Shown here: positions 8,175 to 26,175 of the stretch, one piece after another
Layout of the letters: each line of letters opens with the position of its first letter
Numbering within the stretch: the stretch's first letter is position 1
Virus record (IMG/VR): IMGVR_UViG_3300021400_004213
Source: an uncultured virus (IMG/VR IMGVR_UViG_3300021400_004213)
Lineage: Duplodnaviria; Heunggongvirae; Uroviricota; Caudoviricetes
Length of the DNA stretch: 26,175 bases
Reading direction: 5' to 3' (one strand)
Position numbers and translations under genes: made by a program
Notes under the pieces: generated by a model
The model's database searches: none
Told to the model about the DNA's origin: nothing
The model's input: only the letters and a program-made list of their open reading frames with translations

Positions 8175-8206
8175 AATAGAAAAACCGCTCATAAAGGAGA
8201 CTACAT

Positions 8207-8670: not shown

Positions 8671-8688
8671 TTCATCTATTTGAAGTTC

Positions 8689-8898
8689 TTACACTGCCTC
8701 AACTTCGAAACGATTATTCTGGGCTTCACCCATATCCGCTAACAGCGCAATCTCGTTCTCAGCAGCCTTCTCTGACGCATATGTCTTAGCACCAGACTTC
8801 TCAGGAGCATTTACAAAATGTCCTTCCTTCTTGGAAATTTTTCCAACATAACCAGTCTCATGGCTATAGATATTGATCCACTTCAAATTACATTTCAT
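8689..8898 (-). CDS. Hypothetical protein (69 aa)
   Basis: RBS GAGG; has its own promoter and terminator. Confidence 0.7.
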   Translation of the reverse strand: MKCNLKWINIYSHETGYVGKISKKEGHFVNAPEKSGAKTYASEKAAENEIALLADMGEAQNNRFEVEAV

Positions 8899-8963
8899 AA
8901 TTACTAAACACCTCTTGCTTTCTTTAAAATCAAATAACCTATAAGTAACTGAATGAACAAATC

Positions 8964-9007
8964 ATCCAATAATATTGGATTATATCACAAAAATGAAGCT
9001 ATTTCAA
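8964..9007 (-). promoter_or_regulatory. sigma70 promoter with an operator-like palindrome over the -10/+1 region
   Basis: TTGAAA-17-TATAAT (9007..8979); ATCCAAT-AAT-ATTGGAT (8964..8980). Confidence 0.65.
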
Positions 9008-9014
9008 TAGAAAA

Positions 9015-9563
9015 TCAAAATCTATTTGGATGAGTCTCCCAATTAGGATCAGAAGGCAACTTATTGCCTGCCCGATAATGATCTGCTGGAAACTGCATTT
9101 CCATCAATTCATGCAAATACACCTCAGCAGCATTCTGATATTCAACCGATGTGATTTCACACATACTACGAATATCATCTGCCATCATACACTCTACATC
9201 AAATGATTCAAACTCATAGTGACCCAAATAATAATCACCAGGCTGACCAATCTTCGACGACCGATAACGAAACCAATACGTTGGATGCTCGTCAAACGCC
9301 AAACAGCTTACTCGATACTCGTTCTCACAACGATTTGACACAACACGATAATATCGATTCATTTCAGGAAACATAGGATGAGAAACTTTATGCACAAAAA
9401 AACGCCCAACAAGATCCGAATTCTTCTCCACTTGCATCTGCATTCGTTTCTCATAATCTTGTTTCGACATATCTTTCAGATATGCTGACAAGTCATTTCT
9501 CGACATTCCGTGACGAACTAAAAAATCATTTAGTTCGGTTTGCATTTTCTTATTTTGATCCAT
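9015..9563 (-). CDS. Hypothetical protein (182 aa)
   Basis: Start moved to ATG 9563 after AAGGAGAG; promoter TTGATA-17-TACAAT at 9629..9601. Confidence 0.8.
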   Translation of the reverse strand: MDQNKKMQTELNDFLVRHGMSRNDLSAYLKDMSKQDYEKRMQMQVEKNSDLVGRFFVHKVSHPMFPEMNRYYRVVSNRCENEYRVSCLAFDEHPTYWFRYRSSKIGQPGDYYLGHYEFESFDVECMMADDIRSMCEITSVEYQNAAEVYLHELMEMQFPADHYRAGNKLPSDPNWETHPNRF

Positions 9564-9648
9564 GATAACTCTCCTTTTTGCAAAATTCAAAACTCAATTT
9601 ATTGTATCACAAAAAGGTTCATTTATCAAATAAATTTATCCAAATTTC

Positions 9649-10941
9649 TTACAGTACCTCAACTAAAGAAAACAGCACAATCGAAACATTTTGCCAATTT
9701 CCGTTACACGTATACATAGCAATGTCGTCACTACCGTGATCCCAGACATTAATTCCATTCCAATCATACACATCATAGCCATCATTCGTGCCGCCGCCTA
9801 CATAATAACAGGAATACACATATGTATTCCCACCATGACGGATAAATGCCTTTGTGCCAGAGCCACAACTACGAATACCAGAAAAACCTTGATTCGTATG
9901 ATCGCCAATAAATGGCGTAGCACCCCAACCCGTCATATACACAGCAGAATCATCCGCGTCAACAACAGCCTGCGCATCTACATTATCATAATAACCAATC
10001 TGATATAGAGCTACATTAATCCCAACATCAGGAATATACAAACGACCATAACCGCCATAATTATCACAAAGAGATGTGGTAACACCATTATGGATATATG
10101 TATCAGACGAATACCATTCAGAGCACAAAGTGCCAGAACCAGTATAATATTTACCATCTTCTACTGTATCCATGGCATAACCACCATCTTTATATAAATA
10201 ATAAGTAGCATCATCAGAAGATACATACGTTTCTCCTGTTTGTTGCACACCATTATCATCAAAATAATACACTATATCATTGATTGTCTGCCAACCAGTG
10301 ACCAACAGACCATCGTCATTCAAGTAATAACGAACGTCACCAGATGTCAGCCAGCCAGTCCACATATGACCATCTTCAATAGAAAAATAATAAAGACCAT
10401 CCTCCGTTTCCAACCAATCTGTTACCATATGACCATCGGCATCGAAATAATACTTCTTGCCGTGATCTTCTACCCAACCTTTAGATAAACCACTGCTTCT
10501 ATCGAAATAGTAGGTTGAATCATCTAAAAATAAAAACCCAACATGCTGCGCACCAGTCTGGTCAAAATAAAAGGTTTTATCGTCTACATCGACAAAACCA
10601 ATCTGCATAATACCCGACGAATTAAAAAAATATTTTATGCCATCTTTTTCTAACCATCCAACAGTTGCTTTACCATTCTCATCTAAAAAATAACGATTAC
10701 CATCTAAGTCAAACCAACCCACACAAGGATTCGAATCCACATCATAAAAGTACGTTCCATCATCACTTTCAGATAACCCTTCAATACCGCCATCAAAATT
10801 TAATGTAATTTCATACACATTCGCTTTAACAGGCTTTATATCTGCCCCATCAACATCAAATGTCATGGCTGGAACCATAGAAATTTGATTGGCGGACACA
10901 AAAAGAAACATGATAATCGAAACTATCACTTTCAAAAACAT
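9649..10941 (-). CDS. Secreted protein with ~8 cell-wall/choline-binding repeats and a C-terminal sortase-like domain
   Basis: Signal peptide; ~20-aa GW/F-x5-(R/K)YYF-x3-G repeats; C-terminal GRLYIPDVGINVAL...FIGDH...MYTC. Confidence 0.75.
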   Translation of the reverse strand: MFLKVIVSIIMFLFVSANQISMVPAMTFDVDGADIKPVKANVYEITLNFDGGIEGLSESDDGTYFYDVDSNPCVGWFDLDGNRYFLDENGKATVGWLEKDGIKYFFNSSGIMQIGFVDVDDKTFYFDQTGAQHVGFLFLDDSTYYFDRSSGLSKGWVEDHGKKYYFDADGHMVTDWLETEDGLYYFSIEDGHMWTGWLTSGDVRYYLNDDGLLVTGWQTINDIVYYFDDNGVQQTGETYVSSDDATYYLYKDGGYAMDTVEDGKYYTGSGTLCSEWYSSDTYIHNGVTTSLCDNYGGYGRLYIPDVGINVALYQIGYYDNVDAQAVVDADDSAVYMTGWGATPFIGDHTNQGFSGIRSCGSGTKAFIRHGGNTYVYSCYYVGGGTNDGYDVYDWNGINVWDHGSDDIAMYTCNGNWQNVSIVLFSLVEVL

Positions 10942-11160
10942 TATTTCACCATCCTTTTATTCTATTTTTCAATGAAAGAATAGCAAAAACATTGATATAA
11001 ATCAATGATTGTTTATCACTATTACAACATTGCCTAAACAAAACCAAAAATAAGACAAAAATACAACCCATAAATTTTCATACGAGTGATGCAACGAAGC
11101 CTATCTCAAATTACACAAAAGGCTTCTTTTTTATCACAAATTGAAAGGATTGACGTGTTT

Positions 11161-11886
11161 ATGCATTCAAAACTAACCATACATCATCTTCTGCTAATAA
11201 TTACATGTGCTATCGTATGTATAGGTTGTACTACAACGCTCACAGTAAATAAAGCAAACGCTTCTGCGACCATTGTGCCTGATGAAACCGAAACGTTTTC
11301 ATCAACAACACCCGTTATCGTCATAAATACCGAAAATACAAATGCACAAGCAAACTCATCATCAACACCGTTTCACGGCGTTCGCAAATTCGAACTAAAC
11401 TGGCAACCAATTGAAGCCAAATTATATCATCACAACATTCATGGATTAAACAATCGATTCGACCCATATGGTTTCACCATGTTTATCCCAGACATATTCA
11501 ATGAAATTGAATCACTTGAATACAATCCAAATCGAATTGCAGCCTATCAAACGGAATATAACGATTATACACTGAGCATCACCAAAGAAACTTTCAATTA
11601 TGAAACAAACGATCTTGACGATATCGCTTCTCAAATGATAAACGACGCCGATAAGACCGTTTGCCGAGCCACCATTAACAACCTTCAATTCATAACCATT
11701 GAATCTTATTCAAAAGATACATTACAACTCATCACCCACGCAAACAATTTCTACGATTGGTTCGACGAAAATGAATATATCGTTTTCCAATTCGAACCCA
11801 TGAGTAATACAAAATATACAGACTTAACAATATCTATGTCAGGATCTATTCGACCCATGTTTCCAAAAGACAATCCAAACACATAG
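11161..11886 (+). CDS. Hypothetical exported protein (241 aa)
   Basis: Start moved to ATG 11161 after GAAAGGA; N-terminal signal-like helix; the TAG stop is followed directly by a terminator. Confidence 0.7.
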   Translation: MHSKLTIHHLLLIITCAIVCIGCTTTLTVNKANASATIVPDETETFSSTTPVIVINTENTNAQANSSSTPFHGVRKFELNWQPIEAKLYHHNIHGLNNRFDPYGFTMFIPDIFNEIESLEYNPNRIAAYQTEYNDYTLSITKETFNYETNDLDDIASQMINDADKTVCRATINNLQFITIESYSKDTLQLITHANNFYDWFDENEYIVFQFEPMSNTKYTDLTISMSGSIRPMFPKDNPNT

Positions 11887-11924
11887 AAAAAGAGCACCCT
11901 CAAACGAGGATGCTCTTTATTTTT
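11887..11924. terminator. Bidirectional terminator
   Basis: AAAGAGCACCCTC-AAAC-GAGGATGCTCTTT between convergent genes. Confidence 0.75.
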
Positions 11925-11938
11925 CTTACGAAAACATA

Positions 11939-12568
11939 TTACTGCTGATACTCAGCTTCATATGCAGTCTTTGCTTCTTGGAACTCATTATCACCAACAC
12001 CAACGTCACTAATGCTAATCAGCGTTGCATTTTCCAACCAAATAACATTCTCGGCTTCATCATAATGCACACGACCTGTCATTTGAACCCACTTATCGCC
12101 AGCAATACGATCTTTCCAATTCGTTGGAATAGCATCAATAATCTTTGCTTTAAATGTTGACTCACCATCCTGTGCTGACTCAACAACAATCACATCTTCT
12201 GCTGAAGCATCTACACTGCAATCCAAAGCAAAGACTGTAAAATATGTACCATCACCTTCACCATGTTCACGCATGTAAGAACGTACATAACCACTTGGAC
12301 AAGCATCTGGATTAGTAGCATCAACCTGATTATAACCAACCATATGTCCGCCCTCTTCTTCAGGCTCTAACAGAACAGAACCATCTGGCTCAACCTCTGT
12401 TTCCGTTTCATCATCTGCAACAACAGATTCCGAAATCACAGAACCTCTTTCTGCCCGTGCGCCTGTACCAGGCTTCACAGAGGACATAATATTCCAACCA
12501 ATCACGACAATCGAAACAATTGCCATTATCAACACAACAAGCCAAATCTTCTTGCGGTCATTATCCAT
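11939..12568 (-). CDS. Hypothetical membrane-anchored protein, possible OB-fold-like extracellular domain
   Basis: RBS AAGGAGG; one N-terminal TM helix; acidic linker; WVQMTGRV...IWLENA pattern (fold is a guess). Confidence 0.75.
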   Translation of the reverse strand: MDNDRKKIWLVVLIMAIVSIVVIGWNIMSSVKPGTGARAERGSVISESVVADDETETEVEPDGSVLLEPEEEGGHMVGYNQVDATNPDACPSGYVRSYMREHGEGDGTYFTVFALDCSVDASAEDVIVVESAQDGESTFKAKIIDAIPTNWKDRIAGDKWVQMTGRVHYDEAENVIWLENATLISISDVGVGDNEFQEAKTAYEAEYQQ

Positions 12569-12585
12569 ACCTGTTCCTCCTTTAC

Positions 12586-13137
12586 TTATTTCTTCGAAAA
12601 AACATCGTATTCCTTAGTTACTACGATATTCGGAATCAGATATGTCCAAACATCGTCGCGCATCAACTGGTTCAAAACAAACTCAACACCGTCGACTTGC
12701 TTCAAAATCAGACGCATCTGATTGAACCAAAATGCTTTCGCATCTTCATTATTCAAATCGACAACAGCTGCGTTCAACATAAAATGAAGAGCAATCTCAT
12801 TTCCTGGGGTACGCTTCAGATAAATCTTTGTGTACCAATCCATGACATCACCATGTTCCGTCAAATTCTCAGCAATCACATGAAATGAATATCTTACATT
12901 CTGATGAATAACACAATAATAAGAAACATGAACACCATGTTCATCTCGCCACATACGCCAACGAACTTCTTTCGTATCAACCTCAGGCATTCCATCAGGC
13001 GCAAATGGATGATTAATCTGTGCTTGAAGCAACTCACAAAACTCATAAAGTTTTGTATCTAACTCTTCATTCGAATACTTATCTGGATTCGCATGCACAT
13101 CCAGCAGATATTGCAATACAGCTTTTCTATCGGACAT
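12586..13137 (-). CDS. Hypothetical protein (183 aa)
   Basis: Starts 4 nt after the upstream stop; RBS AGGGGA; operon-like packing. Confidence 0.75.
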   Translation of the reverse strand: MSDRKAVLQYLLDVHANPDKYSNEELDTKLYEFCELLQAQINHPFAPDGMPEVDTKEVRWRMWRDEHGVHVSYYCVIHQNVRYSFHVIAENLTEHGDVMDWYTKIYLKRTPGNEIALHFMLNAAVVDLNNEDAKAFWFNQMRLILKQVDGVEFVLNQLMRDDVWTYLIPNIVVTKEYDVFSKK

Positions 13138-13141
13138 AATT

Positions 13142-14083
13142 TTATCCCCTAACAGCAGGACACACTGCTTTCATTTTATATGCATCAATTAACGCACATA
13201 ACCAAGCAGATGCACTATCATATCCGAAAGAAGACTCCAATGTTTTTCCAGGAATATACATTCTTACAAAACCAACAGTTTGTAAATCATTCATGATACC
13301 CATGAAAATAGCACCATTTCCATGGTAAAAACGAATAGATTCCGTAAACCATCTGTCTATTTCTAAACGCTTTCTCGTCAATACAGACCGAATGGCCTGT
13401 AATGTCAAAAAGCCATCTCCAAAATAATACGATAACGCCTCAATCAGCAGATTGAATGATTCTGCGTACTTCGCATCAGCTACAATCTTCTTCTGCATCC
13501 AATAAGAAACCATTTGTTCCATATCAGCATCAGATAAAGGAAACTCTGTACGCAAATCATATACATAGTATATATCGTCTGCTTGGTTATATTCAAAAAA
13601 CCAACCATCGCTGAACATAGATTCAGCTGTATAGATTTTTGCAGGATCACAATCACTCTTAAAAACAAACTGCTTGCGAACGTGATCATCTTCAAACAGC
13701 ACTTTATACTCTGGAATAAAATTACGTTTTGAAACTACGTGTGCAAGCCCATCCTTATCATATAAAACGATTGAATCATTACCCCAAATATACACGCTTA
13801 CTCTTCCTTTATCAAGCAAGTAATCGTGAATAATATCAATCAACGATTGATCTGAAACTGGCGGATGATTCAAATAAAAAGTTTTACCAAGCAAAACATT
13901 CTGTTCCAAACAGCCAACACGGCTTACCGTCTGGTTCTGTGATGTCCACTGATGTTCCCCATCAACAATTTTAGAAACCTTTTCTTTTCGAGATAAAAGA
14001 AAAGCGACTTGGTTTGGTCGTTTCGTCAATCCTTGACCAAGCAAGATCGTAGGATTTTCAATCCTTAACGCTTCAGCTTCCAT
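13142..14083 (-). CDS. Hypothetical protein (313 aa)
   Basis: Long ORF with RBS GGAGG. Confidence 0.8.
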   Translation of the reverse strand: MEAEALRIENPTILLGQGLTKRPNQVAFLLSRKEKVSKIVDGEHQWTSQNQTVSRVGCLEQNVLLGKTFYLNHPPVSDQSLIDIIHDYLLDKGRVSVYIWGNDSIVLYDKDGLAHVVSKRNFIPEYKVLFEDDHVRKQFVFKSDCDPAKIYTAESMFSDGWFFEYNQADDIYYVYDLRTEFPLSDADMEQMVSYWMQKKIVADAKYAESFNLLIEALSYYFGDGFLTLQAIRSVLTRKRLEIDRWFTESIRFYHGNGAIFMGIMNDLQTVGFVRMYIPGKTLESSFGYDSASAWLCALIDAYKMKAVCPAVRG

Positions 14084-14101
14084 AACATACCTCCGACATT
14101 G

Positions 14102-14197
14102 TCATTCAATATCATCGCTACGTTTACCAACAATCATGGAACACAAAACACCAAACATAATAAACGCAGCAAACACACCTGCAAAAATCAACAGCAT
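14102..14197 (-). CDS. Small single-TM protein (31 aa), below the ORF-track cutoff
   Basis: MLLIFAGVFAAFIMFGVLCSMIVGKRSDDIE*; RBS GAAAGGA; first ORF after promoter TTGATA-17-TATACT (14289..14261). Confidence 0.6.
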   Translation of the reverse strand: MLLIFAGVFAAFIMFGVLCSMIVGKRSDDIE

Positions 14198-14310
14198 GAT
14201 ATATTCCTTTCGTACCAAAACCATGACCTACAAACACAGGACAGAAATAAGATCATCATAAGTATACATCAAATCATCACATTTATCAATAGAAAAAGGA
14301 AAAAAGCTAT

Positions 14311-14341
14311 AAAAAGACCCACCTTCACATCAGGTGGATCT
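14311..14341 (-). terminator. Intrinsic terminator
   Basis: AGATCCACCT-GATGTGA-AGGTGGGTCT-TTTT right after the stop at 14345. Confidence 0.75.
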
Positions 14342-14344
14342 CAT

Positions 14345-15157
14345 TTACTTCGGAAAATCCTTAACACGAGGCTTTTTTCGAAACACATGTGGCGATTTCA
14401 CATACTGTTTCATAAACTGCTCACCCTGCGCACATATCGTATCATAATCATCAATTCTATTCTCATTAATCAAATGCTCGATAACTTCTGCATAATCACT
14501 TCGATAAAGACGCCAACCATAAAGATCCTCATACTGAGATGCGTCTTTATAATTGAACGGACATAAGACATAAAGGCCGTCAGGTAATTCGCCTCTATCA
14601 CCGCGAATTTTACTAACGGTATTCACCAAGGCTCGATCACTGGTATTCTGATACGACCAAATGCGATACCGTTCATTCTGATATTCCAAATACATATCCG
14701 TATGATCTGCAATATCATCCTCAGGACTACTACGATAACATACAGCATCGGTCAACTGATCTGCCAGTTTCCCAGGTAAATCCATTTCTCTCAAAAAGGC
14801 TGGGAGCGAACGAAGCCCTCGACCAACAATACCTGTAATCAAACCCTCATTATCAAAATGCTGATTGCATTCATGAATAAGTCTCATCATATATGATACA
14901 GGAGTTAAATAACCCTCATTTAACGCATCATAAAAGACTTGCGAATAACTAATCTGTCTCAAAGGACCCTCATACTTATAAGGAATACCCTCCACTGAAT
15001 ATCCATTCATCATCTTGTCCGTTAAATTCTGCATTTGCAGTATCGTCTTCGCTTGTTCAATTTCTTCTGCAGGATAACCATGACAAAACTTAAGACCATC
15101 AACGTAACTACGTTTCGCCCAAGCTCCCATGTATTTACGAACATTTTTGATATCCAA
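14345..15157 (-). CDS. Hypothetical protein (270 aa), possibly a restriction-endonuclease-like (PD-(D/E)XK fold) nuclease
   Basis: TTG start after AAGGAGG. The ORF is well supported; the function is a weak guess from RGLRS..FLRE and EDDIADHTD...IWSYQ. Confidence 0.45.
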   Translation of the reverse strand: MDIKNVRKYMGAWAKRSYVDGLKFCHGYPAEEIEQAKTILQMQNLTDKMMNGYSVEGIPYKYEGPLRQISYSQVFYDALNEGYLTPVSYMMRLIHECNQHFDNEGLITGIVGRGLRSLPAFLREMDLPGKLADQLTDAVCYRSSPEDDIADHTDMYLEYQNERYRIWSYQNTSDRALVNTVSKIRGDRGELPDGLYVLCPFNYKDASQYEDLYGWRLYRSDYAEVIEHLINENRIDDYDTICAQGEQFMKQYVKSPHVFRKKPRVKDFPK

Positions 15158-15185
15158 GGAACCAGTCCTCCTTCTATCGGGTAAC

Positions 15186-15244
15186 TATTGACGAAACAAT
15201 TCCGTCAATATGACTAATGTAACACAAAAGTTAGACAAATGCAA
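15186..15244 (-). promoter_or_regulatory. sigma70 promoter followed by an inverted repeat at +1
   Basis: TTGCAT-17-TACATT (15244..15216); TATTGACG-9 nt-CGTCAATA (15186..15210). Confidence 0.55.
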
Positions 15245-15275
15245 GTTTTGATATATGATCAACACATAAATGAAC

Positions 15276-15314
15276 AAAAAATAAGGGACTATCAAATTGA
15301 TAGTCCCTTAAAAA
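15276..15314 (-). terminator. Perfect 14-bp inverted repeat, probable terminator
   Basis: TAAGGGACTATCAA-A-TTGATAGTCCCTTA, with a T-run on the minus strand, downstream of 15339. Confidence 0.75.
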
Positions 15315-15338
15315 CATACTACATTTATAAAACTCCCA

Positions 15339-15911
15339 TCAACGTGAGAACTTATGTGTTTCGTAAGCAGTTTCCAAATCTGCAATTACATCTTCTATCG
15401 AAACAGGCGTACAAGCATGTGCATCTACACCGACATTATACATCCAATAATTTTCTTCACCTGTCTTTTCATCTCGAAAGAAACAATGTTGTTGATGTGT
15501 ATGACCAAAAAGATTTATTAAATCTTTTTTCGGTGAACGATCATCACCATGCATACACAATGTCGGATAATGACTCAAATAAAAACGATATTTACCATAC
15601 TTCACAATTGTTGCATACACAATCTCTACGACATTGTAACATTCACGATATAACCGCTCACGAGTATCTGTATCGTGATTTCCCAAAATAATATGGATAC
15701 GTCCTCTAAGTCGCTTGATGAACCAAAGACCACCTTCATTATTATTCAACATCAAATCACCAAGGACATAAACATCATCATCTTCTGTCACAATACGATT
15801 CCAATTGCGAAAAATCGCATTGTTCATATCGTAAACATTTGTAAAACCTCTCGGTTCATACAAAAACGGCTTATCGTGACCAAAATGAAGATCTGATGTA
15901 AAATAAATCAC
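15339..15911 (-). CDS. Calcineurin-like phosphoesterase of the short type common in phages (190 aa)
   Basis: IYFTSDLHFGH, WN..V...DDVYVLGD, GNHD, LSHYP, GHTH and NVGVDA; GTG start after GAGGTG. Confidence 0.9.
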   Translation of the reverse strand: MIYFTSDLHFGHDKPFLYEPRGFTNVYDMNNAIFRNWNRIVTEDDDVYVLGDLMLNNNEGGLWFIKRLRGRIHIILGNHDTDTRERLYRECYNVVEIVYATIVKYGKYRFYLSHYPTLCMHGDDRSPKKDLINLFGHTHQQHCFFRDEKTGEENYWMYNVGVDAHACTPVSIEDVIADLETAYETHKFSR

Positions 15912-15926
15912 GATATCACCTCACTA

Positions 15927-16316
15927 TTAATCCTTAATGATAACATCTCCAGAAACATCCGTCGAATATGTGAACCGAATCACACCATCCGATTCAACAT
16001 AATCAATACTTCCTTCGATGATATATCCAGAACCTTCTAACGAATGCAACACAGCAAGCATCTTTTCAGACTTACCTTTAACGTCAGCCTCCTTATAAGC
16101 ATCACTCTTCATAAGTGACGCAACACGCTGATCCACATAATTCATGATGTTCTCATTGGCTTCCTGCTTTGTATATTTACGTGTTGGTTCTACTTCATAT
16201 TCTTCAGCAACACTGCCAGATTCAACAACATTATCGGCACTTGCTTCTGAACTACCACAAGCAACCAACGTCACACATGTCATAACAACAAGTAACAAAA
16301 CAATCAATTTCTTCAT
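15927..16316 (-). CDS. Hypothetical lipoprotein (129 aa)
   Basis: MKK, hydrophobic stretch, then lipobox LVAC. Confidence 0.8.
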   Translation of the reverse strand: MKKLIVLLLVVMTCVTLVACGSSEASADNVVESGSVAEEYEVEPTRKYTKQEANENIMNYVDQRVASLMKSDAYKEADVKGKSEKMLAVLHSLEGSGYIIEGSIDYVESDGVIRFTYSTDVSGDVIIKD

Positions 16317-16337
16317 TTCGATACCTCAATTCATAAA

Positions 16338-16697
16338 TTATATAGCTTCGCCATTCTTTGTTTTCTTAGATACTTTCCTTGCATGAGCCATTTCCCACAC
16401 ATAACGGATAAAAACATCCCAATTTAACATGACCTGGTCATAAACATCAATCTTTTTTTCCTGAAACGAATCACTGGGAGGCCAATCCGAAAGAATAATC
16501 TCCCATTCTGCCTTACTCCAGAAATAATATTGAAGACTCTTTTTAATTTCTAACGAAAACACCTCAAAATCGTCCTTATATCGCTTATAAATTTTCCGCA
16601 CATCGTCCATAAAACGACCATGCCGAAAGATATTATATGCAGTAATATTCCGACAATTCATGTCTTCCACATAAACATACCATTCCATATCACGCAT
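16338..16697 (-). CDS. Hypothetical aromatic-rich protein resembling Firmicutes phage hypotheticals
   Basis: RBS AAAGGGG; YYFWSKAEWEII and KIDVYDQV..NW; promoter TTGATT-17-TATGAT at 16762..16734. Confidence 0.75.
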   Translation of the reverse strand: MRDMEWYVYVEDMNCRNITAYNIFRHGRFMDDVRKIYKRYKDDFEVFSLEIKKSLQYYFWSKAEWEIILSDWPPSDSFQEKKIDVYDQVMLNWDVFIRYVWEMAHARKVSKKTKNGEAI

Positions 16698-16763
16698 CGA
16701 CAAACACCCCTTTCGTCATGTATTTCTGCTACAATCATAACATAAAAAGACTCATAAATCAAT

Positions 16764-16794
16764 AAAAAAGCCGAAATCTTTCGATTCGGCTTTT
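16764..16794. terminator. Intrinsic terminator (bidirectional shape)
   Basis: AAAAAAGCCGAA-ATCTTTCGA-TTCGGCTTTT. Confidence 0.75.
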
Positions 16795-16806
16795 CGTCTT
16801 ATATAA

Positions 16807-18027
16807 TCAATTCAACAGATATGTTTTTCGTACAGGCTTCCACTGAATCTTATCTTTCAGCTTCGGATACGAATCAGAATCCAGTTCAATCATGTCCAAA
16901 ACATTCTCATCCTCATCAAAAACGCCATAGTACGAAAACCAAGGTTTGATACCAACAACATCTTTTTCTTCTATACGAAGTAAAATATTGTCTCGATTTG
17001 CAAACTCAACATCATAACCATGATCGATAAGTGCGACATACATCTTACATGCTGTCATGTTGGCGGGAAATGCACCACCTGTCAAATACAAATGACCATC
17101 CATCAAATATAAATGAATGCTATGCTGCCCCGTAAATGAAAACATAATTTCAAATGGATGACCACCAACATACGTATATGGAGGTTCGTGTTTCAGCCAC
17201 CTCTGGAATTCTTCCTCCGAATCCAAATCAACGGTCTGCAAACCGTCATCTCGCCCATCGGCATACCGATAATACAACTCTTTCGGTGTTACACCACCAT
17301 AACGACGATGCTCTTCATCCGTATCCGTAAATAACGTACCACCATCATCCAATCCGACAGCTCGATAACAAACCGCACACGCTTCATAAAATTCGCGCGC
17401 AGTTTTCGGCACAGTTGTTGTGGTCGGTTTCTCAAGCATTAACACCTGCTTCTCATGCTCAGACAAAGCATACTTTGTCTTTTCTTCAGGATAAACCTCC
17501 CAATACGCATGCCTTGAAATCGTCCCAACACGCAAATGATACGCCAAATTCTCTTTTACCCAATCATTATAAACGCCTTTCTTCAACATCTGCACAACAT
17601 CATTTACAATCGAAATCAAACCTTCGATAAATTCTGTTGCATCTGTTTCGGGCCATTCTACTTCGTTCCTATCATGAAGGCTCAACACATACATATCGTT
17701 GATATACACGCCATAAAACGGCTCATCTTCCCAATCTAACTGTTGATAAATCAACATACAATCAAACCAACCATCTGTTTCATGATTGTACCAATCTCGA
17801 AGCTGCGCTTCCGTACCGTCATGCAATTTCTTATAATCTTCGAAACTTCCTTTTGGAAGATAAAAATAAAAACGCTTCTTATGACCATTCTCATCTGGTG
17901 CTATCGGACTTGCTGCATCAAATAATTTCAGCAGCAAAGCCTGGGAAGCAGCATCCAACTTCATAACGTCCGAAATACCATTATCATAATACTCTATTAA
18001 TTGCCACATTTGCGGTGCAGTAAACAT
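16807..18027 (-). CDS. Hypothetical protein (406 aa)
   Basis: Long ORF with RBS AGGAGG; YADGRDDGL and GGHPFE look like conserved motifs but I cannot assign a function. Confidence 0.8.
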   Translation of the reverse strand: MFTAPQMWQLIEYYDNGISDVMKLDAASQALLLKLFDAASPIAPDENGHKKRFYFYLPKGSFEDYKKLHDGTEAQLRDWYNHETDGWFDCMLIYQQLDWEDEPFYGVYINDMYVLSLHDRNEVEWPETDATEFIEGLISIVNDVVQMLKKGVYNDWVKENLAYHLRVGTISRHAYWEVYPEEKTKYALSEHEKQVLMLEKPTTTTVPKTAREFYEACAVCYRAVGLDDGGTLFTDTDEEHRRYGGVTPKELYYRYADGRDDGLQTVDLDSEEEFQRWLKHEPPYTYVGGHPFEIMFSFTGQHSIHLYLMDGHLYLTGGAFPANMTACKMYVALIDHGYDVEFANRDNILLRIEEKDVVGIKPWFSYYGVFDEDENVLDMIELDSDSYPKLKDKIQWKPVRKTYLLN

Positions 18028-18064
18028 CGAACCACCACCCTCCTAATAAGCAATATATTGCTCA

Positions 18065-18250
18065 TTAACATTTGTTTTGATCAATAACATGCAAAATGTT
18101 ACTATTTAAAATTTCTGTTCGATTCGTCGTAATCACACGTTCTTTGCTACTATCATAGCCACAAACACAACGCCAAATCACAACAGGACTTCCAGCGACA
18201 TACGTCATCGAAAAGGTCATATACCGACCACATCTCGGACAAACCATCAT
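18065..18250 (-). CDS. Small Zn-ribbon protein (61 aa)
   Basis: CPRC...CVCGY; ATGA overlap with the upstream gene. Confidence 0.7.
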   Translation of the reverse strand: MMVCPRCGRYMTFSMTYVAGSPVVIWRCVCGYDSSKERVITTNRTEILNSNILHVIDQNKC

Positions 18251-18594
18251 ATCCGTTCACCTTCAATCTCACGAAATAATGCGTCCTTAAGTAACTCACC
18301 GACATCATCTTCAGGCTTTGCATAGATCGTAACGGTCTCAGGCACCTTCACGAGACGAAACGTCATCTTTACAGCACCTTTATTATATCCATTCCAAGCC
18401 CTACGCAGATCTTCCTCAGTTCCATCAATCTCGACTTGTCGTCCACAATTCCAGCACGATGCAATAAACCCATGCGTGCCGTCTTTATAAGTATGACAGG
18501 AAATGGACAACTTGTCATTCCCACACGCGCAACGATTATACCCTGGTCGTGGCATGTTACCCCAACATGCATTTGTCGTCCATTCCCTATACAT
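18247..18594 (-). CDS. Zn-ribbon protein, Lar (restriction alleviation)-like
   Basis: CACG...CWNCG...RAWN, matching the Lar-family CxxCG...WN pattern; start moved to ATG 18594 after AAGGAG. Confidence 0.6.
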   Translation of the reverse strand: MYREWTTNACWGNMPRPGYNRCACGNDKLSISCHTYKDGTHGFIASCWNCGRQVEIDGTEEDLRRAWNGYNKGAVKMTFRLVKVPETVTIYAKPEDDVGELLKDALFREIEGERI

Positions 18595-18606
18595 AAGCAA
18601 TCTCCT

Positions 18607-19134
18607 TTATTGAATAATCCTTACAAACGCCGTAGGCGTCATACAATACATATCTGCAATAAGCGTATCACTATCTGGGTTGGCTACATGAACAATCTGT
18701 CCGTCACCGATATAGATTCCACAATGCTCACCCCAGTTATACGCCACGATATCTCCTGGCTCTAATTCGTTCTCCGAGATGTTCCCCATCGCTTGAAACT
18801 CACTCGCTGTACGAGGGACACTCATTCCATACGTTTCGTAAATCAAATGTACGAATCCCGAACAATCCGTTCCTGTCTCCAGTGAATTTCCGCCATACAC
18901 ATATGGCAAGTCACCTGCAAAGGAACACGCATAATCCACTAACTTTTCTCTCAGTTCATTACATTCCTTCTGCTATTCTTCCAATCGCTTCAAGTGCATC
19001 TCATGAATCTTGATGCACAATTCATCTTTGTCAAGCAAATCAAACGGTGTTGCATAAACAGGAAGTACCGAACAACCGATGACCATAGTCATACAAAAAA
19101 CAAAAACAACCAACTTAATGACAATCTTTTTCAT
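18607..19134 (-). pseudogene. Secreted NlpC/P60 (C40) peptidase with an in-frame TAG at codon 54 (pseudogene or read-through)
   Basis: ATG 19134 (RBS GAAAGG) gives MKKIVIKLVVFVFCMTMVIGCSVLPVYA...KRLEE*QKECNELREKLVDYA, in frame with PYVYGG, DCSGFV, PRTA, HCGIYIG and VHVA. The TAG is at 18975..18973. Confidence 0.8.
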
Positions 19135-20125: not shown

Positions 20126-22720
20126 TCAATTCTGATCTTCTACATACCAGTAAACGTTATCCGAAATTGGCATTCCATTCTCATTACTAAATGTAATCTC
20201 AAATGTAAACGTATCGTCCTTGTTCGATTCAGTAAGCTCAGACCCATCCTTAGTGATCTTCAAAACACCTGGACGAGTATGATTATCAAACGCAACACCA
20301 TCTTCATCATAGGTAACGTCAGCAGTTAAAGCACCTTCAACAGGTAAATCAGCCGTTACCGTCATATAATAACCATAATTGACCATATCTGTCCAATTAT
20401 TATTTGTTGTTGGATAAGCATAACTATTATACAATACACTTAATGAATCGCCGTCAACATCAAATTCATCTGTCAAATACTCTTGGTCTTTTCCATTTAT
20501 ATAATAATACTGCTTCAAGGCTGTATTTGGATTAAAATCAGCACCATATGTCTGCGTACGCACTTCCTCATGTGCACCTTGCCAAATATAAAACTGACCT
20601 CTCGGATTCGTATACTTTACAGTCACATGTAACTTATCGGCACCAGGAATCGTAATAACATCCGTATAATACGTACTGCTTGAGTAATCATACTTCTTTA
20701 CGCCATTATCCAAAATATTACTCGAATGAGATACAACATTGACACTCTCCACATCACCAGCCAATTGACCAACAAGAACCTTGACTGTTTCCTCATGTGT
20801 ATCATAATCAATGCTATTATCCTGCGGATCTATCTCACGAATAATATATGTATGCGCTCCAAGATCAGCTTTTGTATATTCAATCGGATCAAACTGGATG
20901 AAACCGCCATCCACAACAAATTTCGTTTGAATTACATTGCGATTCTCATCAAGTAATTCAAATTGATAAGTACCTAACTTAGCTGGATGACCATCTAACT
21001 TTTTCGTTCCAGTAAACTGAACCGTTACAATATCAGGCTGATACTTGTTCCAAAACGATACAGCAGACTCTTCCAACGCCTCAATGACACCTGAAGCATT
21101 TTCTTGTTGAACAATCACCCATCCGTCAGGCGTAAGTTCATAGACTTGGTATGACGTTCCTGCTGGAATGTCATTAAATGTCGCCTTTTCACCAGCCCTG
21201 ATATCGAAGGTAAAGCTACCATCCTCCATATTTACAGAAAAATCGGTTCTTCTCCAAACAGCATTCAATTTGATATGAACATCCTTTGTACCAATATCAT
21301 TAGGCCCACTATAATGATACCAATAAAGCCTGCCGCCATCAGAAATCGTCTTATAAGACGATACTCCAGAACCATTGTCAACCGAAGGATCTAAAGCCCA
21401 ATGGTCAAACTCATAACCAGGTTTTACATAAGTGTTCGCAGGCAAATCAATACTATAATAATTTCCAGCATTATATTCAGGAACACCTTTTTCTACATGA
21501 ATCTCTGGCATCGAACCCGTAACACCAGCACCGCCGTCAAAAGACACATGAACATTAAATGTATCAACGGTATACTCCCACGTACCAGCTAACGATTCTG
21601 GATCATTATAATACGCCCTCGTTAATGCACGATAATCATTCTTATTCCAACTTGATGCATACGCTTCTGTATTTGCTTCTACATTGCGCCAACCAAATAC
21701 GGTATAAGAATCATTAACGATATAGTTTGAACTAGCAGGCTCATCAAGTCCAACTCGACAATCATAATATGGCGGCAAACCGAACCTGAAATTTGGTCCA
21801 ATCACAAATTTCTTCAAATGATACTTATAACTACTATAATTATAAGTATGTGCATATAGCATTGAACTAAATTGATCAGGATTTGTCATACCACGCATGT
21901 CAAAATTACGAACATCAATAAACTCAATGGGCGACCAAGAAAGCATGCACATACAACTCTGTAAACTTGGCGTATAAAAACTTGATAGATCTAATTCATG
22001 CATACTCGCCATAGAAGCAAACATATAATCCATATTTGTAACATTACGAGTATCAAAATTAGATACATCCAACATAGTTAATTTTTCACAATCATAAAAC
22101 ATCCAAGACATATCTGTGACTTGATTTGTATTAAAACTCGACAAATCAAGCGATTGCAAATTTTGACACTGCCTAAACATGTCCTTCATTGTTCGCACAC
22201 TACGAGTATCAAAACTTGATAAAGTCAAAGATTCTAAGGCATAACAATAACGGAACATAGCCTCCATCGATGTGACATTTCTCACATCAAAACTTGATAA
22301 ATCAAGAGATGTCAACTTAGAACAATTCTCAAACATAAAATTCATATTTGTAACACGCTGTGTATCAAATCCTGTTGCATCAAATGATTCCAAATTAGAT
22401 AAATATTCAAACATTCTTGACATATCGCCTTGTCCGTGAACAATACCGTCAAATCGGACAGATTTCACCTGATAACCATATCCAGAACACCAAACAGGAC
22501 TTGAATTACGATTACTCCTATACGTAAACGTCTGTTCAGTACCATCGCCTATAATCAATTCATAATCAGACGTAATACGCCAATCGACGCCATCGTATAC
22601 ACCCCCATCAAGGTCACCTTCTTGCTTGGCAGCATGTACCGTCTTCGCAGGCACCATTGCAAGCATTACAGCCACTATCATGGCGATGCAAAGCAATATA
22701 CCTTTCATTCCTTTCTTCAT
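20126..22720 (-). CDS. Secreted BspA/DUF285-type LRR surface protein with pilin-like Ig domains, paralog 1 (864 aa, no LPXTG or TM anchor)
   Basis: Start moved to ATG 22720 after GGAGG. Signal peptide (VHA); 7 x 26-aa MF..C..L..LDLS.FDT..VT repeats; Listeria-Bacteroides/InlB-B-like repeat; Spy0128/FctA-like domain (FTGTKKLDG...YIIREI...FDN). Confidence 0.88.
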   Translation of the reverse strand: MKKGMKGILLCIAMIVAVMLAMVPAKTVHAAKQEGDLDGGVYDGVDWRITSDYELIIGDGTEQTFTYRSNRNSSPVWCSGYGYQVKSVRFDGIVHGQGDMSRMFEYLSNLESFDATGFDTQRVTNMNFMFENCSKLTSLDLSSFDVRNVTSMEAMFRYCYALESLTLSSFDTRSVRTMKDMFRQCQNLQSLDLSSFNTNQVTDMSWMFYDCEKLTMLDVSNFDTRNVTNMDYMFASMASMHELDLSSFYTPSLQSCMCMLSWSPIEFIDVRNFDMRGMTNPDQFSSMLYAHTYNYSSYKYHLKKFVIGPNFRFGLPPYYDCRVGLDEPASSNYIVNDSYTVFGWRNVEANTEAYASSWNKNDYRALTRAYYNDPESLAGTWEYTVDTFNVHVSFDGGAGVTGSMPEIHVEKGVPEYNAGNYYSIDLPANTYVKPGYEFDHWALDPSVDNGSGVSSYKTISDGGRLYWYHYSGPNDIGTKDVHIKLNAVWRRTDFSVNMEDGSFTFDIRAGEKATFNDIPAGTSYQVYELTPDGWVIVQQENASGVIEALEESAVSFWNKYQPDIVTVQFTGTKKLDGHPAKLGTYQFELLDENRNVIQTKFVVDGGFIQFDPIEYTKADLGAHTYIIREIDPQDNSIDYDTHEETVKVLVGQLAGDVESVNVVSHSSNILDNGVKKYDYSSSTYYTDVITIPGADKLHVTVKYTNPRGQFYIWQGAHEEVRTQTYGADFNPNTALKQYYYINGKDQEYLTDEFDVDGDSLSVLYNSYAYPTTNNNWTDMVNYGYYMTVTADLPVEGALTADVTYDEDGVAFDNHTRPGVLKITKDGSELTESNKDDTFTFEITFSNENGMPISDNVYWYVEDQN

Positions 22721-22922
22721 ACTGAAATACCTCCATGATTCTTTATATATTCTTACATAAAGAAACGCCTCGATAATAAATGCAAGGCTATTCAACCTCG
22801 CATCTTCCTATCAAGGCGACGTCTATTATGACTTTTACGTGCTCAAAAAATAAGCACATATCGACCAATTCTTACTCAATTCTTTACTCTCATAATATAC
22901 TTGAATTATCAGTCTTTTTCAA
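22721..22922 (-). promoter_or_regulatory. Promoter plus structured 5' leader, copy 1
   Basis: TTGAAA-17-TATATT (22922..22894); small hairpin 22839..22857; 53-nt hairpin 22766..22818 followed by TTTCTTT; paralogous to 25600..25795. Confidence 0.75.
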
Positions 22923-22932
22923 GACACTTATC

Positions 22933-25599
22933 TTAATTCTCGACGTACCAATAAATATCATCACTGATCGGCATTCCATTCTCATTACTAAATGTAATTT
23001 CGAACGTAAACGTATCGTCCTTGTTCGCTTCGGTCACATTGGCATTCTTCGTAATACGGAGAATACCTGGACGAGTCTTGTTCTCAAACTTAATACCGTC
23101 TTCATCATAAGTAACTTCGCTACTCAACCTATTGCTACCAGCAGAAATATAAAATCCATAATTCGAATACTCTTTATATATCGGAATTGTGGATGGATAT
23201 GCATACGAACAATATAATACAGTAATCGTATCACCTGGAACATCCAATTCCTCAGTAATTAGCATATTATCTTTATCATTATTATATGAATATGCCTTAT
23301 ACGCAGTATTTGGATTTAAAGCCTCCGTATAACCAGAAATGCTTCCATTCGAATTTGCTGAAAGATTTGCAATCTCAACACTATGATCACCTTGCCAAAT
23401 ATAAAACGAACCACGTACATTCGAATAATTCATATTCAAATGCAACGACTCAGCACCAGATTTACTTAATACACCTGTATAAAGTTCATAACTTCCATAA
23501 TCATGCAGTTTATTTCCATCATCATCAATATTTGGCGAATGAACACACACTTTTGAATCAGCTACCGATACACGTACATGAACAACTTCTTCATGACTAT
23601 CATAGTCAATGCTATCATCTTGTGGATCAATCTCTCTCACAAAATACGTATGCTCACCAACATCAGCTTTTGTATATTCAATCGGATCAAACTGAACAAA
23701 TCCACCATCCAATACAGTCTTTGTCTGAAGTACATTCCTGTTTTCATCAAGAAGTTCAAACATATATGTTCCTTCTTTCGCAGGATGTCCATCTAACAAC
23801 TTTGTGCCTGTAAACTGAGTTGTTACAACATCAGGCTGATACTTGTTCCAAAATGTGGCTGCCGATTCTTCAAGAGCCTCGATCACGCCAGAAGCGTTCT
23901 CTTGCTGTACAAGCACCCATCCGTCAGGTGTAAGTTCATATACTTGATATGTCGTTCCTGCGGGAATATCCTTGAATGTAGCTTTCTCACCAGCTTTAAT
24001 GCTGAATTCAAAAGCACCTTCATTCATACTTATATTATGATTATCTTTTTCAAACATAGCTGTTAATGTAACGGTAGAACCTTCATCATAAATACCTGCA
24101 GGAATCGTACCGTTATTCTCATACTGATGCCCCTGTCCATCATCCCAATAAACAAATGAATGATCGAAAATATAATATTCACAAGACGGTAGTACAAATT
24201 CTTCCCCATATACAGCATATGAACTCTTCATAGATCCAGCAGCACCATCAGCAACATAATTTATATTATAGCCAGGTACTTTTTCCCAAACCCATGTTCC
24301 TTCAATTGAATCAGTATCATTTAAGCTAAGCAATTCACTTGCGTACAGAGCGCCTTCTTTTTCACCTTCCAAAATCCATTTTCCTGTATATGGATATTTA
24401 GAAGAGGCATTTGGAATATCACCCCAATAATGATACCTAGCAATATTATTACCCTTGTAATAATAATTCGGACCAAAAACTATCTTTTTCAAATTATTAC
24501 AATACGCAAACATGCCATGTAAATCAGTACAACGATGCGTATTAAAGTTCTGAATGTTAATAGATTCAAGAGACTCACAATGCGCAAAAATTTGACCAAG
24601 ATTCTGCGCACTTGAAGTAACCCAATTCGAAACATCTAATTCTTCTAAACTTAAACAATCCTCAAACACACTATCCAAACGTGTCACATGACTCACATCA
24701 AATGACGATACGTCAACACTCTTTAAACTTTTACAACCCCTAAACATGTGTTGCATTGTTGTTACACGATCGGTATGCCAATCAGATAAATCTAAAGTCT
24801 TAAGACTCGCACAACCATCAAATACACCGCTCATATCTGTAACAAGACTCACATCTAACCCAGAAACATTAGCAGATTCCAAACTAGTACAACCACGAAA
24901 CATCCGTCTAATATTCGTTAATTGACCAGCATTTAATGTAGATAAATCAACAGAAACCAAACTACTACAGTATTCAAAAACTTCCGCTAAACTCGTAACC
25001 TTTGGTACACGAAAACTAGATAAATCCACAGAACGTAAGGAACTACAATAACGAAACATATCGCCCATATAACGAACATTAGTGGTAACAAAATTGCTCA
25101 AATCAAGATCTATAAGATTTTCGCACATATAAAACATGTCAAGTAAACTTGTAACATTACTCGTATCAAAATTAGAAAGATCCAAATGTTGTAAACTAGA
25201 ACAACGACTAAACATATAAGACATCGTTGTTGCTCTAGAAGTATCTAAATTACGGAGATCCATCTCTGTACAATTGACCATATTTGCAAATAAAGAATAA
25301 CACCCCGCAGCAGTATTTACACCTGGCAATACCTTAACTTTTTTCACTGATTCCGCATAAGCACTCCATGAAGGAGATGCAGAAACGTAAGAATCAAGAA
25401 TGCCAATAAAGCCGTCCGTAGGAGGACTAATCGTCAATACACCATCCGCATCAATAACCCAGGAACAAGTACCTGATGTTCCTGACGCAATATCATCATC
25501 AGCGGCTTTCACTACATTCACGCCAAATATGGTAAACAAACCAGCACACAGCACAAATGCCAACAACAAGCCTAATATGCCTTTCATTCCTTTCTTCAT
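22933..25599 (-). CDS. Secreted BspA/DUF285-type LRR surface protein with pilin-like Ig domains, paralog 2 (888 aa, no LPXTG or TM anchor)
   Basis: Signal peptide (VKA); SGTSGTCSW..D.DGVLTI cap; 10 full plus 1 partial 26-aa LRRs; same downstream architecture and YWYVE end as paralog 1. Confidence 0.9.
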   Translation of the reverse strand: MKKGMKGILGLLLAFVLCAGLFTIFGVNVVKAADDDIASGTSGTCSWVIDADGVLTISPPTDGFIGILDSYVSASPSWSAYAESVKKVKVLPGVNTAAGCYSLFANMVNCTEMDLRNLDTSRATTMSYMFSRCSSLQHLDLSNFDTSNVTSLLDMFYMCENLIDLDLSNFVTTNVRYMGDMFRYCSSLRSVDLSSFRVPKVTSLAEVFEYCSSLVSVDLSTLNAGQLTNIRRMFRGCTSLESANVSGLDVSLVTDMSGVFDGCASLKTLDLSDWHTDRVTTMQHMFRGCKSLKSVDVSSFDVSHVTRLDSVFEDCLSLEELDVSNWVTSSAQNLGQIFAHCESLESINIQNFNTHRCTDLHGMFAYCNNLKKIVFGPNYYYKGNNIARYHYWGDIPNASSKYPYTGKWILEGEKEGALYASELLSLNDTDSIEGTWVWEKVPGYNINYVADGAAGSMKSSYAVYGEEFVLPSCEYYIFDHSFVYWDDGQGHQYENNGTIPAGIYDEGSTVTLTAMFEKDNHNISMNEGAFEFSIKAGEKATFKDIPAGTTYQVYELTPDGWVLVQQENASGVIEALEESAATFWNKYQPDVVTTQFTGTKLLDGHPAKEGTYMFELLDENRNVLQTKTVLDGGFVQFDPIEYTKADVGEHTYFVREIDPQDDSIDYDSHEEVVHVRVSVADSKVCVHSPNIDDDGNKLHDYGSYELYTGVLSKSGAESLHLNMNYSNVRGSFYIWQGDHSVEIANLSANSNGSISGYTEALNPNTAYKAYSYNNDKDNMLITEELDVPGDTITVLYCSYAYPSTIPIYKEYSNYGFYISAGSNRLSSEVTYDEDGIKFENKTRPGILRITKNANVTEANKDDTFTFEITFSNENGMPISDDIYWYVEN

Positions 25600-25795
25600 A
25601 TTGAAATACCTCCATAACTCTTTATATTTTTACATAAAGAAACGCCCCGATAAGAAATACAAGGCTATTCAACCTCACATCTTCCTATCAGGGCGACGTC
25701 TCTTTAACTCTTAAATATCCTTATGGATATAATCGACCATTCATTTATTCAATTCTTTACTCTCATAATATACCTGAATTATCAGTATTTTTCAA
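25600..25795 (-). promoter_or_regulatory. Promoter plus structured 5' leader, copy 2
   Basis: TTGAAA-17-TATATT (25795..25767); small hairpin 25715..25730; 53-nt hairpin 25643..25695 followed by TTTCTTT. Confidence 0.75.
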
Positions 25796-25839
25796 GATTC
25801 GAAAGCATTTTATTTCTAGTCTGAACCACTTTGCCATCA

Positions 25840-25880
25840 GAAAAGCACCCCAGTCGGCTCTTGCCTTCTGGAGTGCTTTC
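25840..25880 (-). terminator. Intrinsic terminator of the LPXTG gene / candidate sRNA
   Basis: AAAGCACTCCAG...CTGGGGTGCTTTT. Confidence 0.7.
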
Positions 25881-25945
25881 CTTTTGTCTGGAGGGATTTC
25901 TATGAAGAAATTCATATGTTACTCAGTAAGCAAAACTTACTGGAA
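25840..25945 (-). ncRNA. Candidate 3'UTR-derived antisense sRNA targeting the RBS/AUG of both LRR genes
   Basis: 5' hairpin CAGTAAG/CTTACTG (25924..25942); seed UUUCUUCAUAGAAAUCCCUCCA (25910..25889); terminator. Confidence 0.5.
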
Positions 25946-25965
25946 TAACCAATTCATTACGAGGA

Positions 25966-26175
25966 TTATTCATCCTCATCGTCATCCTTCTTCTTACGCA
26001 GCAAGAAGAATAATCCACCTGCAATAACCACAACACCGACAATTGTAAGTACAATCGCAGTTGTGCTACCAGTAGCAGGAAGTGTCACTGTTGCCTTGTT
26101 CGTGAATGTCAGATCCAAATTATCTGCATCCACCAGTTCTGCTTTCAGAATACCATCTTTGGTATCTGTGACTCG
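25966..26175 (-). CDS. C-terminus of a sortase-anchored (LPXTG) surface protein, partial
   Basis: Hand translation: ...KDGILKAELVDADNLDLTFTNKATVT-LPATG-STTAIVLTIVGVVVIAGGLFFLL-RKKKDDDEDE*. Confidence 0.9.
   Translation of the reverse strand, partial: RVTDTKDGILKAELVDADNLDLTFTNKATVTLPATGSTTAIVLTIVGVVVIAGGLFFLLRKKKDDDEDE

Follow-up and report, generated by a model that had tools for sequence, protein, structure and literature searches.

The 26,175-nucleotide (nt) sequence of an uncultured virus (IMG/VR record IMGVR_UViG_3300021400_004213), which we refer to in its whole length as the window, carries on its minus strand the 3' end of a gene for an LPXTG surface protein and, downstream of it, two tandem genes for large adhesins. 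Within the 3' untranslated region (UTR) of the LPXTG gene lies a 22-nt string that copies, in inverted orientation, the translation-initiation region (TIR; Shine-Dalgarno (SD) sequence, spacer, and start codon) of both adhesin genes. We consider it plausible, and put it forward tentatively, that this string is the seed of an RNA-level element that would pair with these start regions in the manner of the icaR 3' UTR of Staphylococcus aureus. A first-pass annotation of this DNA had already proposed an RNA link running from the 3' UTR to the adhesins; the sequence partly supports that proposal, while the explanation it offered for the identical N-termini of the two adhesins turned out to be wrong.

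The seed (25889..25910, minus strand) reads UUUCUUCAUA-GAAAU-C-CCUCCA as RNA and is the reverse complement of the SD, the spacer, and the first three codons of the adhesin genes. On the plus strand, it is composed of TGGAGG (25889-25894), a single G (25895), ATTTC (25896-25900), and TATGAAGAAA (25901-25910). Its first predicted target, the TIR of adhesin 1 (25591..25614, minus strand), reads TGGAGG-T-ATTTC-AA-TATGAAGAAA with the ATG at 25599-25597, and the second, the TIR of adhesin 2 (22712..22735, minus strand), reads TGGAGG-T-ATTTC-AG-TATGAAGAAA with the ATG at 22720-22718. On re-reading the DNA, the letters and coordinates annotated at first pass for the seed and for both adhesin starts were found to be exact. 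Duplexes were computed with RNAduplex, setting the 31-nt seed region against candidate TIRs, and this reproduced the proposed pairing of 21 base pairs (bp), in blocks of 10, 5, and 6 with one mismatch and a 2-nt bulge. The duplex energy is -26.1 kcal/mol for adhesin 1 and -25.1 kcal/mol for adhesin 2, and the costs of opening are small, at 4.0 kcal/mol for the seed and 4.2 and 4.4 for the two targets, respectively. Two variants of the seed region were seen in other runs, 25886 G>A and 25895 G>T. The latter abolishes the single mismatch; it is the sole letter read in runs X3 and X18, a single contig of X1 and a single contig of X2 have it, and so does L081, a related contig described below.

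The surroundings of the seed resemble a small RNA (sRNA) in layout, with a 5' hairpin, an open C-rich linker, and a terminator within a 3' UTR of 130 nt. The seed follows the stop codon of a protein-coding gene and precedes that gene's intrinsic terminator, which is where the elements of icaR-type 3' UTRs and of sRNAs derived from 3' UTRs are located. Folding confirmed the arrangement described at first pass, in which the seed is placed between a 5' hairpin (hairpin 1, 25918..25949, minus strand) and the terminator, with the complement of the start codon exposed in the loop of a small stem. This mini-hairpin (25911-25896, minus strand) has six pairs, AUUUCU/AGAAAU, with UCAU in its loop, and the CCCUCCA block of the seed is mostly unpaired (unpaired probability 0.63-0.95), so that an accessible C-rich motif complementary to the target SD and start is present. 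The terminator hairpin (25839..25882, minus strand) has a 15-bp lower stem that includes the U run, and its tail reads UUUUCUG. Altogether, 144 nt of the LPXTG 3' UTR region have a folding energy of -50.4 kcal/mol, with z = -5.2 relative to 200 shuffles.

Both hairpins are far more stable when read on the gene strand than on the other one. For hairpin 1, the values are -13.8 versus -9.1 in the window and -18.5 versus -12.4 in L081, and for the terminator they are -32.4 versus -23.9 and -28.0 versus -14.8, respectively. Substitutions between the window and L081 give G-U pairs on the gene strand, where they would be C-A mismatches on the other strand, and the apex of hairpin 1 in L081 is an unrelated palindrome, 9 nt longer, with the stem and its pairing kept. 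As the hairpins are more stable and compatible with G-U pairs only on the gene strand, the RNA under selection is the tail of the LPXTG transcript, and judging from these comparisons, the 3' UTR region is under RNA-structural constraint in that capacity.

The resemblance of the seed to an adhesin start is unlikely to be accidental. The start-like motif GGAGG-N5-10-ATGAA[AG]AA[AG] has three matches on the two strands of the window, namely the two adhesin starts and the seed site. The 863,828 bases of other loci also contain three, two of them in L081, at its seed and at one of its adhesin starts, and the third in locus L050, which leaves a single match in approximately 0.85 Mb of unrelated loci. 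A local alignment of plus-strand positions 25830-26000 with the minus-strand cassette at 25800-25500 gave a score of 32, and none of 500 simple shuffles reached this value (mean 17.1, maximum 28). Given the rarity of the motif and this alignment score, the seed is, from its sequence, a genuine inverted copy of the adhesin TIR, beyond chance as a start-like string. The similarity between seed and cassette stops sharply at a core of 22-24 nt, and we rejected a relic with wider homology because the similarity is confined to that core.

Among the 80 candidate TIRs of the window, those of the two adhesins are the best partners of the seed, and the next best reaches -18.4 kcal/mol. In 80 unrelated loci, which supplied 1550 foreign TIRs, the best value is -23.1 and none reaches -24, and the 58 of these TIRs that have GGAGG and ATG average -13.5; likewise, none of 731 low-GC TIRs from 44 loci reaches -25.1.

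A search of metagenome contigs returned three loci: L080, which is the window's own contig; L082, which has 42% identity and is not syntenic; and L081, the one informative relative. L081 is a separate contig with the same layout, in which the end of the LPXTG gene is followed by the 3' UTR, a promoter, a leader, an adhesin gene, and a second adhesin gene. Its seed reads TGGAGG-T-ATTGC-TATGAAGAAATTT in the plus sense, and its targets are TGGAGGTATTTCGCGTTATGAAAAAG and TGGAGGTAATGAAGGTATGAAGAAATTA. The cognate duplexes, at -24.1 and -26.3 kcal/mol, are the top two of the 28 L081 TIRs, the next one being at -15.8. The aligned region is 91% identical between the two contigs, and both changes within the seed fall in the spacer and leave the SD and AUG blocks intact, a distribution that is not significant at 9% divergence. 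Elsewhere, genome contigs yielded no relative in a protein scan with P0001 and no match to the 25-nt promoter pattern. In viral contigs, 79 loci matched the DUF285 repeat region only (alignment A1), at 50% identity or less and none of them syntenic, while three DNA patterns had no matches and the LPXTG alignment A5 found no relative. Three phage records were retrieved with blastn in distant mode, each covering just 2% of the query, and there was no match among plasmids.

From the letters of the seed, the predicted structures, the pairing energies, and the presence of the element in one relative, we infer an RNA of the form drawn here whose pairing would alter translation. The seed, an inverted copy of the SD, spacer, and AUG-AAG-AAA of a tandem family of DUF285 leucine-rich repeat (LRR) and pilin-like genes, lies in a mostly single-stranded 3' UTR linker and would most likely act at the level of RNA as an anti-TIR. 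Its CCUCC and CAU blocks would pair with the SD and the start codon and thereby occlude the ribosome, and the duplex might also be a substrate for a double-strand-specific RNase. There are three modes in which this could take place. The two downstream paralogues could be acted on in trans, either by the tail of the full-length LPXTG mRNA or by a fragment of approximately 100-130 nt processed from its 3' end; the tail could pair in cis within its own LPXTG mRNA, as for icaR; or it could pair in cis within RNAs whose transcription has continued past the terminator, in which case adhesin 1 would be translated solely from its own promoter. In the predicted read-through RNA, the minimum free energy structure has 21 of the 22 seed nucleotides paired with the adhesin 1 TIR, and pair probabilities average 0.90 for the window and 0.84 for L081. 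The sequence is compatible with all three modes, and the data do not discriminate among them. Among the sequencing runs searched, no RNA run contains this locus. Contigs of run X18 cover 25632-26175, and this run is labelled metatranscriptomic but flagged as "probably DNA"; we did not use them as evidence of expression.

The second of these modes requires a start of the same type in the LPXTG gene, whose own 5' end lies outside both the window and the contig. In one of its full-length relatives, P0003, the gene call places 13 extra N-terminal residues, MQKYIKKYGGISV, ahead of MKKW, and this extension resembles a translated leader and TIR. The leader of adhesin 2, read in the frame of the extension, translates to M*EYIKNHGGISV*, and in BLASTP the M1 of adhesin 1 aligns with M14 of P0003. 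Residues 1-13 of P0003 thus appear to be mis-called, with M14 probably being the true start. Judging from the P0003 protein, the LPXTG gene probably carries the same TIR as the adhesins, and it is for this reason that pairing within the LPXTG mRNA itself is plausible. A bolder proposal is that the LPXTG 3' UTR is a family-wide translational silencer, a single tail mirroring the start site of all the tandem head-variant adhesins including its own; we regard this as improbable on present evidence. If it were true, expression of the LPXTG gene would determine, with RNA pairing as its sole means, which LRR head is translated, and the start of the downstream gene would be masked in read-through transcripts, forming an RNA-based exclusion circuit for surface-protein paralogues.

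RNA targeting is not needed to account for the identical MKKGMKGIL starts of the two adhesins, for which it had been invoked at first pass. The identity belongs to a duplicated 5' cassette of approximately 215 nt that comprises the promoter, leader, TIR, and signal peptide, and whose copies are 90-94% identical (repeat families D6, D8, and D9); the adhesins of L081 begin differently, with MKKLMTF and MKKLWAF.

Several results weigh against a dedicated anti-TIR function of the seed. Most of the pairing energy is generic and would be obtained with any GGAGG...ATGAAGAAA start. Synthetic TIRs composed of GGAGG, a random spacer of 6-10 nt, and ATGAAGAAA average -21.4 kcal/mol (standard deviation 3.2, n = 3000), and 13.6% of them reach the -25.1 of adhesin 2 and 9.2% the -26.1 of adhesin 1. 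The part of the match that is specific to the adhesins, ATTTC with its flanking Ts, is not significant alone, and in L081 this block is lost (ATTGC). Upstream segments can also form such duplexes by themselves: 25 of 689 low-GC TIRs (3.6%) form one of -26.3 kcal/mol or lower with the 128 nt lying 239-366 nt upstream, a test that was redone on the 44 low-GC loci since its all-loci version was dominated by high-GC contigs. The two changes in the 22-nt seed relative to L081 are no fewer than in the flanks, and the cognate matching is one-sided, in that the window seed is 4-5 kcal/mol worse on the L081 targets while the L081 seed is as good or better on the window targets. The single independent relative, at 91% identity, is too close to reveal covariation between seed and TIR. 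Across the whole window, no Rfam family was found at its gathering score. The strong terminator argues against much read-through and hence weakens the third mode. The best permissive Rfam match was SQ1002, which we rejected (E 0.67, 15.8 bits against a gathering score of 128).

Taken together, the specificity of the seed is in part what had been hoped for at first pass, where it was noted that equally good matches to generic starts would undermine the idea. The adhesin TIRs do come out ahead of the window, foreign, and low-GC sets, but some 9-14% of synthetic starts pair as well, so that generic matching is partly borne out. Because the seed pairs nearly as well with any GGAGG...ATGAAGAAA start, its specificity would consist in the adhesin family being the only nearby genes with such starts. 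The idea appears to survive in this form, as these starts are rare in the element and belong to the adhesin family. The expectation of co-conservation fared similarly: L081 keeps the seed, the layout, and the pairing, but the seed is no better conserved than its flanks, and what can be observed is presence rather than co-variation.

The alternative that has to be taken most seriously, although we still think it unlikely, is that the seed is a by-product without function. It could be a short rearrangement relic in a locus that recombines heavily via its conserved 5' cassettes, or a fortuitous start-like string that is tolerated in a 3' UTR. The abrupt end of the similarity at 22-24 nt would be expected of such a string, as would a seed that is no better conserved than its flanks in the comparison with L081, and the locus is indeed mosaic, with a stalk of approximately 650 amino acids (aa) shared between proteins with differing heads, many joints between paralogues, and two contigs that both end in the LPXTG gene. 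Chance, however, is made unlikely by the single motif match in unrelated loci and by the shuffled alignments, a relic would require the DNA to have broken precisely on either side of a 22-nt piece, and both lineages have kept the SD and AUG blocks intact, with changes restricted to the spacer. If the seed does prove to be functionless, it would be a caution that a perfect antisense of a start-like string yields impressive duplex energies, most of which come from generic SD and Met-Lys-Lys pairing.

It is quite improbable that the string is instead read on the plus strand, where it would serve a small protein gene as its genuine ribosome-binding site and start. An open reading frame (ORF) of 41 codons (25902..26027, plus strand) begins at the start-like string, convergent with the LPXTG gene and overlapping its end, and the first-pass annotation had recognized that a translated gene here would count against the RNA. 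A GGAGG with 7-nt spacing to ATGAAGAAA is an ideal Firmicute-type start, and the frame is open in L081 too, ending at the same stop despite an in-frame length change of 9 nt. By our own estimate, however, chance would leave the frame open across the 21 intergenic codons and the 9-nt indel about one-third of the time. There is no homologue among proteins of 22-72 aa, which is weak evidence since gene callers often miss small overlapping ORFs. The peptide is wholly different at the replaced apex of hairpin 1 (SVSKTYWNN versus SVICWSSHDWNN) where base pairing is kept, so the constraint is on structure and not on coding, and both hairpins are built for the opposite strand. Moreover, the SD starts approximately 7 nt past a plus-strand hairpin and T-tract with no promoter-like site between them, and at the L081 counterpart of the nearest plus-strand promoter-like site (25704-25733) a TATAAT-type hexamer is missing, as seen by eye in the alignment. 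The ORF thus has the TIR of a small protein gene and lacks the promoter-like site and the conserved product, and it is probably not a gene.

The reading that 25591-25614 and 25889-25910 are recombinase sites around a 274-bp invertible segment, which would carry the adhesin 1 promoter and the LPXTG terminator and act as a phase-variation switch, is highly improbable. Surface adhesins are typical phase-variable cargo, and imperfect inverted repeats of 24 and 22 nt, matching at 21 positions with a 2-nt gap, do bracket the promoter-like site at 25795-25767. Nevertheless, the spacer between the repeat halves differs by 2 nt in the window and by 4 nt in L081, which RNA pairing tolerates and a recombinase core site usually does not; a third copy (22712-22735) lies in direct orientation to 25591-25614; a Pfam scan of 26 ORFs across the 26-kb window turned up no recombinase family; and none of the 15 joints listed (of 23) from four metagenome runs changes strand, a weak test that lowers this reading and does no more, because the runs are contigs, which drop rare forms.

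Beyond the anti-TIR element, the genes of this locus have several features of their own. The LPXTG gene is represented by its 3' end (25966..26175, minus strand), comprising the last 69 codons and the stop at 25968-25966, with a Pfam Gram_pos_anchor match (E 2.1e-11), and it extends past both the window edge and the contig end. Its full-length relatives are P0003 (1154 aa, with a tail 100% identical to it) and P0004 (1428 aa), which have DUF285, pilin-like domains, and LPXTG. These two proteins have a near-identical C-terminal stalk of approximately 650 aa and different DUF285 heads, and the contigs of L080 and L081 both terminate inside the LPXTG gene. The LPXTG proteins would thus fit a mosaic, recombining family of heads and stalks.

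The coding sequences of adhesin 1 (22933-25599, minus strand) and adhesin 2 (20126-22720, minus strand) encode proteins of 888 and 864 aa with DUF285/BspA-type LRRs and with DUF7601 and FctA (Spy0128-like isopeptide) domains according to Pfam. The domain scan of the window ORFs found no sorting signal in either. Both end at the same ...ISD(D/N)(I/V)YWYVE(N/D) point with no LPXTG (22933-22945 and 20126-20140), an ending that is repeated in L081 at 3235-3250, and the -35 box of the next gene begins approximately 13 nt past the end of adhesin 1. The adhesin tail aligns weakly (E 0.51) with the first part of a domain that extends further in the LPXTG paralogue. Because of the common end point and this weak match, the non-anchored adhesins may be 3'-truncated paralogues or cassettes. 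At 22400-25700 of the window, contigs from the ruminant gut have many "skips" and "goes back" joints that link conserved 5' and 3' parts of the adhesin genes, and one X3 contig joins 23016 to 25555 with 2 letters between them. This pattern suggests cassette-like variation of the adhesin genes among relatives.

Each adhesin gene is preceded by a promoter-like site and a leader. For adhesin 1, the site is TTGAAA-17-TATATT (25767..25795, minus strand; 10 of 12 matches), with a twin for adhesin 2 at 22894-22922 that also has 10 of 12 matches, and the -10 region and the bases after it are invariant in all four copies, those of L081 included. The 5' leaders are approximately 160 nt each, are 90-94% identical between the two window copies, and can be aligned in four copies in total. 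A terminator-like hairpin followed by UUUCUUU is located in the 5' UTR of adhesin 1 (25643..25695, minus strand), and its twin for adhesin 2 is at 22766-22818. This hairpin is long and strong, has UUUCUUUAU directly after it, lies approximately 35 nt upstream of the SD, and resembles a leader terminator or attenuator. It is kept in all four copies (the window pair and L081 at approximately 470-530 and 3355-3415), with three pairs changed on both sides, for example from C-G to U-A. The retention of the hairpin together with these two-sided changes suggests that the adhesin genes are under antitermination or attenuation control. A plus-strand promoter-like site, TTGAAA-16-TATATT at 25601-25628, overlaps the reverse of the adhesin 1 TIR. 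RNA from this site would be antisense to the leader and would end at the bidirectional hairpin, and the site may also be a chance match in AT-rich sequence.

In the rest of the window, positions 1-19000 have phage-like gene content with many ORFs that belong to no family, and encode the start of a topoisomerase II A-subunit (2-487), a topoisomerase II large subunit (500-2446), two metallophosphoesterases, a GtrA-like protein (8207-8635), an endolysin-like choline-binding-repeat protein (9649-10941), and an NlpC/P60 tail-lysin-like ORF (18607-18939). The window therefore looks like part of a large phage-like element from the ruminant gut.

Invertible promoter switches of the fimS and cwpV type consist of short imperfect inverted repeats that bracket a promoter upstream of a surface-protein gene. 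The adhesin 1 promoter-like site is likewise flanked by inverted repeats, but unlike in fimS and cwpV, no inverted form was seen among the joints listed from contigs, the repeat spacer varies, and no recombinase family is present in the window ORFs scanned. Another class is that of sRNAs derived from 3' UTRs such as NarS and RsaC, in which the regulatory RNA is said to share the terminator of the upstream coding gene and to have its seed upstream of that terminator. The LPXTG seed also lies upstream of the terminator of a coding gene, whereas the LPXTG element, predicted from sequence, has no Rfam family.

In Listeria monocytogenes, the hly 3' UTR pairs with the prsA2 5' UTR, and the tail of the full-length mRNA acts in trans to stabilize its target against RNase J1 (PMC8722363). 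The two cases have in common that the 3' UTR of an mRNA for a surface or secreted factor pairs in trans, here by prediction, with the 5' region of another mRNA to which it is functionally linked, coupling their expression. They differ in that the LPXTG seed covers the SD and AUG and thus predicts repression rather than stabilization. For the icaR 3' UTR of S. aureus, which is more than 100 nt in length, a UCCCCUG motif is reported to pair with the SD of the same mRNA, to prevent the initiation complex from forming, and to generate a substrate for RNase III (PMC3868564). This is the nearest mechanism described so far. The 130-nt LPXTG 3' UTR has a comparable C-rich anti-SD block (CCCUCCA), and the LPXTG gene, going by P0003, probably has a complementary TIR. 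Compared with what is described for icaR, the predicted complement in the LPXTG seed additionally extends over the start codon and the two codons after it, with approximately 21 bp in two blocks, and it matches two downstream paralogues equally. If the element is real, it would take regulation by bacterial 3' UTRs beyond the small set of model Firmicutes represented by icaR and hly-prsA2, with a case in which SD and start codon are both occluded, and it would provide a simple RNA logic for coordinating tandem adhesin paralogues with variable heads in an uncultured gut element. What would set the LPXTG element apart from these known systems is that, as read from its sequence, it covers the SD together with the first three codons and matches a whole family of tandem paralogues.

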